Shown here: positions 3,001 to 6,000 of the stretch, piece after piece
How positions within the stretch are numbered: the first letter of the stretch is position 1
Layout of the letters: each line of letters opens with the position of its first letter
Source of the DNA: Escherichia coli
Lineage (GTDB): Bacteria; Pseudomonadota; Gammaproteobacteria; Enterobacterales; Enterobacteriaceae
Length of the DNA stretch: 64,000 nucleotides
NCBI RefSeq assembly: GCF_003018115.1
Contig: NZ_CP027457.1
Reading direction: 5' to 3' (one strand)
Made by a program: the position numbers

Positions 3001-6000
3001 ATGAGGATTACCTGAAATGGCTGGACCAGTGTCTGGCGCAGTTCTGGCGGGTGCTGAAACCTGCCGGAAGTCTTTACCTGTTCTGTGGCCATCGCCTGGC
3101 ATCTGACATTGAAATCATGATGCGTGAACGCTTCAGTGTGCTGAACCATATTATCTGGGCGAAGCCGTCCGGACGCTGGAACGGGTGCAACAAGGAAAGC
3201 CTGAGGGCGTATTTCCCCGCCACAGAGCGCATTCTGTTCGCGGAACATTATCAGGGGCCGTATCGTCCGAAAGATGCCGGGTATGAGGCGAAGGGCAGGG
3301 CACAGAAACAGCATGTGATGGCACCGCTGATTGCTTACTTTCGTGATGCGCGTGCTGCCCTGGGGATAACGGCAAAACAGATTGCTGATGCCACAGGAAA
3401 GAAAAACATGGTGTCGCACTGGTTCAGTGCCAGTCAGTGGCAGCTACCGAACGAAAGCGATTATCTGAAATTACAGGCGCTGTTTGCCCGGGTGGCAGAA
3501 GAGAAGCATCAGCGCGGTGAACTGGAAAAGCCCCACCACCAGCTGCTGGAGACGTATACTTCACTGAACCGGCAGTATGCGGAACTGCAGAGTGAATATA
3601 AGCATCTGCGGCGGTATTTTGGCGTGACGGCGCAGGTGCCGTACACGGATGTGTGGACGCATAAACCGGTGCAGTACTATCCCGGGAAACATCCGTGCGA
3701 AAAACCGGCAGAAATGCTGCAGCAGATAATCAGCGCGAGCAGTCGTCCGGGGGACCTGGTTGCAGATTTTTTCATGGGGTCGGGTTCGACAGTCAAAGCC
3801 GCGATGGCGCTGGGGCGTCGTGCAACTGGCGTTGAGCTGGAGACTGAACGTTTTGAGCAGACGGTCAGGGAAGTTCAGGATTTAGTCAGTCAGAACGGAT
3901 GATATTGCAGGATTAGTTACGTACCGTTATTATCCTGCGCCGGCCCTTTAGCTCAGTGGTGAGAGCGAGCGACTCATAATCGCCAGGTCGCTGGTTCAAA
4001 TCCAGCAAGGGCCACCATATCACATACCGCCATTAGCTCATCGGGATAGAGCGCCAGCCTTCGAAGCTGGCTGCGCGGGGTTCGAGTCCTCGATGGCGGT
4101 CCATTATCTGCATTATGCGTTGTTGGTTCTGATGAGTGAATCATTGTCTTTTGAGCAACAGGCTATCATATAAGATAGCCTCAGACTTCCTTGTTTATTC
4201 TCGCCGGATGCTTCGTAGATATTTGCAGGCATCTGTATGCAGGGGTATTATTGCGGCATATATCATCCGGAAAAATAAAAACCACATGCTGATCCGGAGA
4301 TGATAGTTACAAGTCCTCCCGGATCCCGCATATTTACTATATTTTATAGATAATTGTTCTTGTTAATATGGAGATGGATAAATGTATTGCCGTGCTGTAC
4401 CGGTTCTTGTTTTGATATTAGCTAGTCTGACAACTGGCTGCACAAAAGATGTATCGACAAATAATTATGATGCTTCTCTGTATCACTCAGATAAATTAAT
4501 AAAGTCGCAAAATTTGAGCTCATCGGAACGTACCCCTGATGCCAGTGAAGAAATCCGGCAGTATGCCATTCAGGTCAGGAAAGCCATAGAAGAACAGTTA
4601 AAGGATGCGAGTAAGTATTCAGGAAAAGAGTGTTCACTGAGAATGTATATGGCCCCGAATGGTCTTCTGCTACAGGTTAAAAGAGAAAGCGGTGATCCCG
4701 ATTTATGTCGTGAAGCGATGAATGCAGTAAAGAATGCTGATATACCATCACCACCGTCTTCAGGAGTATATAAAGTATTTAGAAATGGCGTGCTGGATTT
4801 TAAACTCTGACAGGGGGAGAAGATTTTCTCCTGTCCTGATGATTTTGGGGCGCTGGAAAGATATTGTGCTGTGAAGTGTTAAATCCCTCACAATTCAGTA
4901 AGTTGACAGTTGCCTGTCAGACTGAGCATTTGTTAAAAAAATTTCGCATGGTGAATCCCCCTGTGCGGAGGGGCGACTGGTGAACGGTATGATCTCTTTG
5001 ATGATCGTAAGCGAGAATACGCGGGTTTGGTGTCACCGGGCTGAACTCACCGGGAGGCACCCGGCACCATGCTCATGGTGATACAGAAATGCGGCTTCAG
5101 CCCCTCTCCGGAGGGGCTTTCTTATGGACAAAAAAAGCCCGCGCTGGGAGACGCGGGCGGCAAGGAATAAACAATAAAACGTGAAGTAATACTTCAACTG
5201 GCGAATAATACCCGACAGTAATCACTCTGCGCAATAGCGTGGCCTTTTTCGAATTGCGGGCTGTAGTCTCCCTTCTGCCGGGTGTCCTGGTTGCAGATTT
5301 CTTCATGGGGTAGGGTTCGGCAGTTAAAGCAGCGATGGCGCTGGGGCGTCGTGCAACTGGCGTTGAGCTGGATACCGGGCGTTTTGAACAGACTGCGCAG
5401 GAAATCAGGGATGTATTTAGCGGGAGCGGTTTGCAGAAGTAATCTCCCAAAATGCCATTTTTGGAATATACTGGTATTAAGTCTTTTTGCTCAGGTTAAT
5501 TCAAAATGGATGTTGCCTGCTCTGTGGTCCTGATTCGCTATCCGATAGATATTTTTCTTGAAAAAGAAAAAGTTTCACTCGATGCCGGAAGTGTTATGCT
5601 TGTTGCCAGAAATATAAGAGGGCTTTTCTGTGCTTATGCCGACAGAGTGAAAATGGCAGATATAAGTAACAGCGTCGTCAATCAGTATCTGGAAAGGGTG
5701 TGTGAACTGACGGAGTATACACCGACAAAAATGCCTCTTTATTTGATGTCTGATATTTACAATACGGAACTGGCGGAGGCTTTAATAACCCAGCATAGTG
5801 AATCCAGTGATACTTTGAAGGATTTCTCTGTTATAACCGCATTTTCATGTATCTCCTTATTTGCAACAGACAGGCGTCTGCCATTATTTTTGTCCGGTGC
5901 TGTAAATAATATCAGCTGTAAAGTAAGGGCTATAATTCAGACTGACATATCGGCAGGCTGGATGCTAGGTGTGATTGCATTACAATTGCATATGAGCGAA

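Follow-up and report, generated by a model that had tools for sequence, protein, structure and literature searches.

A stretch of 64,000 nucleotides (nt) of Escherichia coli DNA (contig NZ_CP027457.1 of assembly GCF_003018115.1; hereafter the window) carries two adjacent transfer RNA (tRNA) genes, one with anticodon CAU (3942–4017, + strand) and one with anticodon UCG (4027–4103, + strand), within a lambdoid prophage inserted in ompW. Sequence comparison identifies the pair as the first two members of the ileZ–argN–argO cluster of Shiga toxin (Stx)-type phages, in a truncated variant. The reading favoured here, to which a probability of roughly three in four is attached, is that both genes work as ileZ and argN within a non-Stx prophage, whose late operon holds them, and supplement the decoding of rare codons. 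The module has long been known and the pair is already annotated in public records, such that the finding is real but ordinary, and its value lies mostly in the correct annotation of a familiar Stx-type phage tRNA module. The 'tRNA-Met' output for the CAU gene is wrong, the gene being predicted to encode an AUA-reading tRNA-Ile2, and the codon readable by argN that the prophage over-uses is CGG as opposed to CGA.

Identity of the two tRNA genes

Analysis of the entire window with ARAGORN revealed exactly two tRNA genes, with anticodons CAT and TCG, the latter labelled tRNA-Arg. The Rfam RF00005 covariance model scored the same intervals at 72.5 bits (3942–4017; E = 6e-14 over the whole window) and 55.1 bits (4027–4103; E = 4e-9), both above the gathering score of 29 bits. 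ARAGORN folds both sequences into a cloverleaf with four helices, and the sequences show the conserved U8, A14, G18–G19 and U33, the GTTC T loop and the 3' CCA, which is encoded in both genes (...GGGCC-A-CCA, ending at 4017, and ...GGCGG-T-CCA, ending at 4103). Standard pairs occupy all 21 cloverleaf positions in the Arg-UCG gene and 20 of the 21 in the CAU gene, the remaining position being an A27·C43 mismatch, and pairing fell from 95–98% to 29–54% when the 3' partners were shifted by one to three columns. Thermodynamic folding was not used as evidence; the minimum-energy structure of the CAU tRNA is not a cloverleaf and the z-score of the Arg-UCG tRNA (−1.1) is unremarkable. Both are genuine tRNA genes, and the preliminary description of this DNA, which had reported two tRNAs with canonical cloverleaves and encoded CCA, is accordingly borne out, both by the coordinates and pairing and by the covariance model. 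Its statement that only two tRNAs are present holds also, in that neither ARAGORN, run with relaxed thresholds, nor Rfam, at E ≤ 10, gave a credible third tRNA at 3850–4450. A hidden third tRNA was rejected as a candidate, since all calls returned by ARAGORN at 50% thresholds either overlapped or were badly paired, and nothing credible came from Rfam at 4104–4450.

The CAU gene, which is 76 nt in length, is identical throughout to ileZ of the Stx2a phage F765 (76/76) and to the copies at eight other loci. It matches E. coli K-12 ileX at 68 of 76 positions versus 52 of 77 for metT, and has C4–G69 and C5–G68 in the acceptor stem (GGCCCUU...AAGGGCC), where metT has U–A and A–U. Pairs 4:69 and 5:68 are used by E. 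coli TilS to tell tRNA-Ile2 from tRNA-Met (PMC11947777, PMC1635315). RefSeq labels the CAU gene of a near-identical prophage tRNA-Ile. The gene is, on these sequence features, of the tRNA-Ile2 type, with AUA reading predicted via lysidine at position 34, and its resemblance to ileX, remarked upon previously, is thus substantiated by overall identity, by the TilS determinants and by the RefSeq label.

The Arg-UCG gene (77 nt, with C1–G72, U73 and encoded CCA) is of the argN type, being identical at 76 of 77 positions to the annotated argN of phage F765; the sole difference, T versus C, lies in the D loop. Three compensatory pairs were observed in the argN family. The K-12 tRNA-Arg genes that were looked up have anticodons ACG (four genes), CCG and UCU, and not UCG, as had been suspected in the preliminary description; the seventh K-12 tRNA-Arg gene is argW, with anticodon CCU. 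The identity elements for arginyl-tRNA synthetase (ArgRS) are A20 and C35, plus G or U at position 36, with A or G as the discriminator base at position 73. The argN gene has A20, C35 and G36 but a U73 discriminator, and because A or G occupies that position in K-12 argQ, argX and argU, arginylation of argN is regarded as likely rather than proven.

Kinship of the pair with the Stx-phage cluster extends beyond the genes themselves. Positions 3880–4124 of the window align at 99.2% identity (megablast) with 284 phage-collection records, nearly all from Stx1- or Stx2-converting phages. The counterparts in Stx2a_F765 (AP012534.1), directly upstream of stx2A, bear the names ileZ, argN and argO in its annotation. 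The earlier remark that Stx phages bear three tRNAs in this position, as against two in the window, is therefore correct. The 9-nt spacer between the tRNAs, TATCACATA (4018–4026, +), is identical in phage F765, as is the 13-nt spacer (4104–4116, +) which in Stx phages precedes argO, the Stx match running on to 4124. The upstream leader common to Stx phages (3880–3941, +) comprises the last 23 nt of a methylase open reading frame (ORF) and an intergenic stretch, in which a 7-bp inverted repeat (GCAGGAT/ATCCTGC, at 3907–3913 and 3932–3938) was read from the sequence; this leader marks the left edge of the mobile tRNA module. The pair also appears, as tRNA-Ile and tRNA-Arg, in the RefSeq annotation of the nearest complete genome, that of E. 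coli JNE151685 (99.8% identity over 3 kb). The names ileZ, argN and argO were reportedly first described by Plunkett et al. in 1999 with the 933W genome. In the literature collection searched, nothing relevant was found on ileZ, argN and argO, or on 933W tRNA genes and rare codons.

Codon demand and the late operon

The codon usage of 38 prophage genes (9,711 codons) was compared with that of flanking host genes (7,138 codons), both sets being mapped from RefSeq annotation, with the host sample comprising 20 genes only. ATA is used at 8.4 per 1000 codons in the prophage versus 2.7 in the host flank (p = 8e-7), CGG at 15.3 versus 3.6 (p = 5e-15), AGA at 4.7 versus 1.8 (p = 1e-3) and AGG at 5.5 versus 0.7 (p = 2e-8), whereas the values for CGA are 4.0 and 3.4 (p = 0.53). 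When the 61 sense codons were ranked by enrichment, AGG (odds ratio 7.8), CGG (4.3), ATA (3.2) and AGA (2.6) occupied the first four places, followed in places five to nine by ACG, GTG, GGG, AAG and GAG, all of which end in G and have odds ratios of 1.7–2.0. The top four are exactly the codons of the trio, namely AUA for ileZ, CGG for argN (by U·G wobble, besides CGA) and AGA and AGG for argO, and it is because of this match to the canonical trio that the codon-supplement view is considered to be supported. The preliminary description had singled out AUA and CGA as the codons of interest; enrichment was confirmed for the first but not for the second, and CGA was rejected as the source of demand for argN. 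Since CGA is not enriched and CGG is in excess, the codon demand met by argN is that for CGG. ATA accounts for 18% of isoleucine codons in the prophage and 5% in the host flank, the genome-wide value being ∼7% (PMC2408971). Its density peaks in the cargo genes downstream of the tRNAs, at 33 per 1000 in an AraC-family gene (the prophage maximum) and 28 per 1000 in a TolA-like gene, and the demand for CGG is concentrated in structural genes, those for terL, portal, tape measure and J. The AraC-family regulator gene (HTH_18/HTH_AraC) is situated among the cargo genes at 5506–6231 (+).

The window starts inside the prophage, which ends at a truncated ompW at ∼38.9 kb, beyond which host genes extend from yciE through the trp operon to ribA. 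Gene order on the + strand is RusA, Q, two small ORFs, a methylase gene, the tRNAs, cargo, a NanS-p-like esterase gene, lysis genes and structural genes. The antiterminator Q gene (690–1355, +) was identified by Pfam (Phage_antiter_Q, E = 1e-90) and from the RefSeq annotation of a near-identical prophage. A consensus scan and reading of the sequence revealed a candidate pR' (TTGCAA-17-TATATT, 1363–1391) followed by a candidate tR' hairpin and T run (∼1444–1467), the two together spanning 1363–1467 (+). The DNA methylase gene lies at 2844–3902, the NanS-p-like esterase gene at 8096–10060 and the holin, lysozyme and Rz lysis genes at 10738–12446, all on the + strand; the consensus scan detected no promoter-like site between 2402 and the tRNAs. 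The tRNA genes lie in the late operon, with Q before them and the lysis genes after them, all in one orientation, which agrees with their previous assignment to a prophage.

A scheme that would account for the function of the pair can be proposed. After induction, Q would permit RNA polymerase to pass terminators downstream of pR', and RNase P together with 3' processing nucleases would then excise the tRNAs, complete with their encoded CCA, from the long late transcript. Host TilS would convert C34 of ileZ to lysidine, leading to charging with isoleucine and the reading of AUA, and ArgRS would charge argN, the U34 of which would read both CGA and CGG. In this way the pair would add decoding capacity for codons that are served in the host by minor tRNAs (ileX and ileY for AUA; argX for CGG), and which the prophage uses three- to four-fold more than the host does. 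The argO gene, for AGA and AGG, would have disappeared as a working gene once unrelated cargo DNA took the place of its 3' part, with the prophage presumably now relying for AGR codons on host argU and argW or on other prophages. Codon compensation of this kind is the standard explanation of phage tRNAs (PMC7946995, PMC10264068). We infer, in sum, that the tRNAs are transcribed from the candidate pR', processed, modified and charged, and that phage yield may benefit as a result.

Several observations weigh against this scheme. Firstly, CGA, the Watson–Crick codon of the UCG anticodon, is not enriched. Secondly, the excess of CGG and AGG may in part be a general preference for G-ending codons (coding G+C is 55% in the prophage versus 52% in the host), and the bias may not represent tRNA adaptation. 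Thirdly, AGG and AGA remain strongly enriched despite the loss of argO, which shows that the prophage tolerates such codons without a matching tRNA. The U73 discriminator is unlike that of the K-12 arginine tRNAs, meaning that efficient arginylation of argN is an assumption of the scheme. Finally, a neighbouring gene has decayed, the methylase ORF starting with ACG instead of ATG.

Truncation of the cluster and competing accounts

Alignment to F765 revealed a relic of argO (Arg-UCU) at 4117–4158 (+). The first eight nt of the gene, GCGTTGTT (4117–4124), are identical to F765, and identity to Stx phages breaks immediately thereafter. Further downstream, ATTGTCTTTTGAGCAA (4143–4158) has 14 of its 16 nt in common with the argO anticodon arm and lies within 1–2 nt of the expected offset. 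The local alignment score of 22 was reached in 0 of 300 shuffles. The D-arm region has diverged strongly and the T arm and 3' acceptor strand are gone, and no tRNA was called at 4117–4158 even by ARAGORN or Rfam with relaxed settings. Derivation of the sequence at 4117–4200 from some other tRNA was entertained, a UUU loop having hinted at Lys, and was rejected, as alignments to Lys, Thr, Gly, ileZ and argN were no better than those to shuffles. The preliminary description was therefore right that a functional third gene is lacking; the third tRNA is, however, not cleanly missing, but present as a truncated relic.

Beyond the relic the DNA is unrelated to the cluster and contains a hairpin (4160–4181), a promoter-like site (4222–4251; consensus scan) and an ORF for a lipoprotein-like product with a TolA C-terminal domain (142 aa; 4382–4810, +; Pfam PF06519, E = 8e-23), which is the first gene downstream of the tRNAs and occupies the slot held by stxAB in Stx phages. 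The predicted protein has a lipoprotein-like N-terminus (...LTTGC), its gene shares 81% DNA identity with one of phage mEp460 annotated 'TolA protein', and the product may, as a decoy for TolA, counter colicins or filamentous phages. Segment 4117–4381 occurs in 121–122 of 5,426 complete E. coli genomes (∼2%), always at ≥98% identity and with the same junction, and the junction is absent from all 50,697 deposited phage genomes. A donor of the DNA that replaced argO was not found, the TolA-like ORF alone being matched in the phage collection, in one phage (mEp460). Because the segment is confined to these 121–122 genomes at such high identity, the two-tRNA state is considered to be a single junction lineage, seemingly created when unrelated DNA replaced the 3' part of argO.

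The 252-nt sequence of the whole trio is covered to at least 80% in 2,577 of the 5,426 genomes, a single genome holding as many as 12 copies, and about half of the matching records (∼1,450 of 3,073) fall in the 80–90% identity band, in which every locus inspected proved to have a degraded or replaced cassette. ARAGORN analysis of nine related loci distinguished five cassette types. The ileZ–argN–argO type is found in phage F765 and E. coli S88, and a version with decayed argN at loci L004, L012 (next to stx2e) and L013. Locus L014 has ileZ–argN followed by an argO that breaks off near nt 42 and runs into a DUF3927 gene, L015 has ileZ only, and L003 and L016 (prophages of E. coli E143 and CH4799) have ileZ followed by Lys(UUU), Thr(UGU) and Gly(UCC). 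Across the five types ileZ shows either no change or a difference of 1 nt, in contrast to the variable positions after it, and because of this invariance the comparison suggests that selection acts at least on ileZ. The piecemeal decay of the module, in which ileZ is always kept and argN or argO is lost according to lineage, could guide work on which tRNA matters for phage or toxin yield.

Further observations were made on these loci. The arginine tRNAs have decayed independently (L004, 1577–1676; L012, 684–764; L013, 677–781; L014 and L015, from ∼777). The argN gene is degraded in many prophages, and the copy beside stx2e is labelled 'tRNA-OTHER' by RefSeq. The fusion of argO, cut near nt 42, to a DUF3927 gene is seen in prophages other than that of the window (L014, L015). 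The Lys tRNA (L003, 1578–1654; L016, 678–754) has the acceptor, D and T arms of argN, being identical to it at 61 of 77 positions, with compensatory changes in the anticodon stem and U32–C33 in place of C32–U33; it looks like the outcome of Arg-to-Lys anticodon remoulding of the argN scaffold.

Decay on this scale lends some colour to the notion that the pair is a hitch-hiking remnant, that is, a neutral and slowly decaying leftover of the three-tRNA module from which no present benefit is drawn. Here argO is truncated, argN has decayed at L004, L012 and L013, argO has been cut at another point in L014 and L015, with ileZ alone being left in the latter, the inspected loci of the 80–90% band are without exception degraded or replaced, and the adjacent methylase gene has lost its ATG. 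Nevertheless, both genes in the window retain every feature of a working tRNA, the junction variant maintains them at ≥98% identity in 121 genomes, and ileZ stays invariant across cassette types while its neighbours decay. Neutral persistence is considered to be an unlikely explanation for these reasons, if more conceivable for argN than for ileZ.

Alternatively, the slot just ahead of the cargo and lysis genes in lambdoid prophages might be viewed as a cassette hot spot, in which an invariant ileZ is accompanied by interchangeable tRNAs under differing pressures, with codon supply acting on the Arg/Arg cassette and escape from nucleases on the Lys/Thr/Gly cassette. Under such an arrangement remoulding of the anticodon arm would have turned the argN scaffold from an Arg into a Lys tRNA, the ileZ–argN pair of the window would be a selected state, and argN, a UCG decoder foreign to E. 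coli, would read CGA and CGG, and possibly other CGN codons depending on how its U34 is modified, independently of the host tRNAs with ICG and CCG anticodons. Lys-UUU and Thr-UGU are targets of PrrC/PARIS and P2-OLD (PMC12445682, PMC11464382). The proposal is speculative, and is offered as an improbable account of the slot.

A role in counter-defence is rather improbable, too. On this account ileZ and argN would resist anticodon nucleases, such as colicin D in the case of tRNA-Arg, and, in place of tuning codon supply, would stand in for host tRNAs cleaved while the phage grows. Evasion by phage tRNAs has been documented or proposed for PrrC, PARIS, retron effectors, P2-OLD and colicins (PMC10264068, PMC11464382, PMC11555353, PMC12445682), and nuclease-resistant replacement tRNAs are well documented for Lys, Tyr and Thr (PMC11464382, PMC11555353, PMC12445682). 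The same slot elsewhere holds Lys(UUU)–Thr(UGU)–Gly(UCC), a cassette that the counter-defence idea fits, of which the first two are nuclease targets and the Lys tRNA has an unusual C33, and the argN scaffold is far removed from host arginine tRNAs (48–56 of 77 positions identical). Conversely, the anticodon loops of the pair, CUCAUAA and CUUCGAA, are canonical (U33, A37, A38) and host-like, that of ileZ being the loop of ileX, although canonical loops are weak evidence, since what most of these nucleases recognize has yet to be defined (PMC10264068). The top four codons, moreover, match the trio exactly, for which codon supply accounts directly and more simply. We know of no nuclease that targets tRNA-Ile2.

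It is very doubtful that the tRNAs serve mainly the lysogen, by helping the expression of acquired genes rich in rare codons, such as cargo or virulence genes, more than that of phage late proteins. In E. coli, rare tRNAs are known to hold back fimbrial, virulence and cryptic-prophage genes (PMC2408971), which favours a role of this type, and the peak ATA densities (28–33 per 1000) are indeed in the adjacent cargo. Expression from the repressed prophage is doubtful, however, because there is no promoter-like site directly upstream and the genes are located behind the candidate tR', and the demand for CGG resides in terL, portal, tape measure and J. Lastly, the idea that the CAU gene is an extra methionine tRNA, whether elongator or initiator, can be dismissed almost entirely: ARAGORN prints tRNA-Met because its label reflects the anticodon letters (CAT) alone, and the same annotation appears in several phage records and for S88 in RefSeq, but the gene is nearer to ileX than to metT, has C–G/C–G and not U–A/A–U at 4:69 and 5:68, and, of the initiator criteria (C1×A72 mismatch, A11–U24 and a G–C run in the anticodon stem; PMC1635315), has none, with G1–C72 paired, C11–G24 and no run of three G–C pairs (G29–G31). 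Supplementation of rare-codon decoding by a functional ileZ–argN pair accordingly remains the preferred interpretation.

Neighbouring features and relation to known systems

Other features of the window were recorded also. The methylase ORF at 2844–3902 (N6/N4) is open throughout and starts with ACG where the intact homologue at L004 has ATG, the next start being a GTG at 2964, past the DPPY motif. In JNE151685, RefSeq splits the methylase into two coding sequences at 3020/3021, implying an in-frame stop at 3018–3020, and the gene thus appears to have lost its function in separate events in these two close relatives. Five copies of the STnc100 small RNA family (119–172 bits, Rfam) are present on the + strand at 4917–5129, 6889–7084, 7148–7357, 7419–7617 and 7679–7868, four of them forming a tandem array immediately ahead of the NanS-p-like esterase gene, inside the late operon. 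The top three alignments end in a GC hairpin and T run, and the stack, being located between Q and the lysis genes, may have a role in antitermination or regulation.

Towards the right end of the prophage there are matches to C4 antisense RNA (38404–38487, −; 61.6 bits) and to the Hfq-binding RNA isrK (38513–38589, −; 60.4 bits), which adjoin a degraded ORF6N (antirepressor-like) gene and the ompW remnant. A gene with a tail-fibre N-terminal domain (35459–36264) matches the nearest genome (L005, 35458–36726) over the first 806 of 1,269 nt, and this region is ∼80 bp shorter in the window, which points to a rearranged locus. In the host portion, the trp operon leader (47244–47337, −; 91.4 bits) and the small RNA STnc180 (59772–59974, +; 202.9 bits), between cysB and acnA, were detected.

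With respect to known tRNAs, the closest relatives of ileZ in the host are K-12 ileX and ileY, which encode tRNA-Ile2 with a lysidine-modified CAU anticodon that reads AUA. The loop CUCAUAA, C4–G69, C5–G68, U12–A23, C29–G41 and A73 are shared. The ileZ of the window differs from ileX by eight substitutions, including a compensatory change from C6–G67 to U6–A67 and the A27·C43 mismatch where ileX has G27·U43, and, unlike ileX and ileY, it is phage-borne and probably expressed in a late operon. The argN gene is more distant from its host counterparts: it shares the 77-nt class I cloverleaf, A20 and C35 with K-12 argQ/V/Y/Z (ACG), argX (CCG) and argU (UCU), to which it is just 48–56/77 identical, but alone has the UCG anticodon, the C1–G72 first pair and the U73 discriminator.

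Compared with the other cassettes of the slot, that of the window has the same invariant ileZ in first position and the same location after Q or the methylase gene, the differences being in tRNAs two to four; its ileZ–argN–truncated argO arrangement constitutes a separate lineage, present in 121 of 5,426 genomes. Compared with the cluster of Stx phages (933W, Sakai Sp5, PA2 and Stx2a_F765), ileZ (76/76), argN (76/77), the 9-nt and 13-nt spacers and the 62-nt leader are held in common, as is the position downstream of Q and upstream of cargo and lysis genes. The window differs in that argO is cut after 8 nt, with a degenerate remnant of the anticodon arm, in that a TolA-like lipoprotein gene follows instead of stxAB, and in having a different type of Q gene and a different 2.5 kb between Q and the tRNAs.

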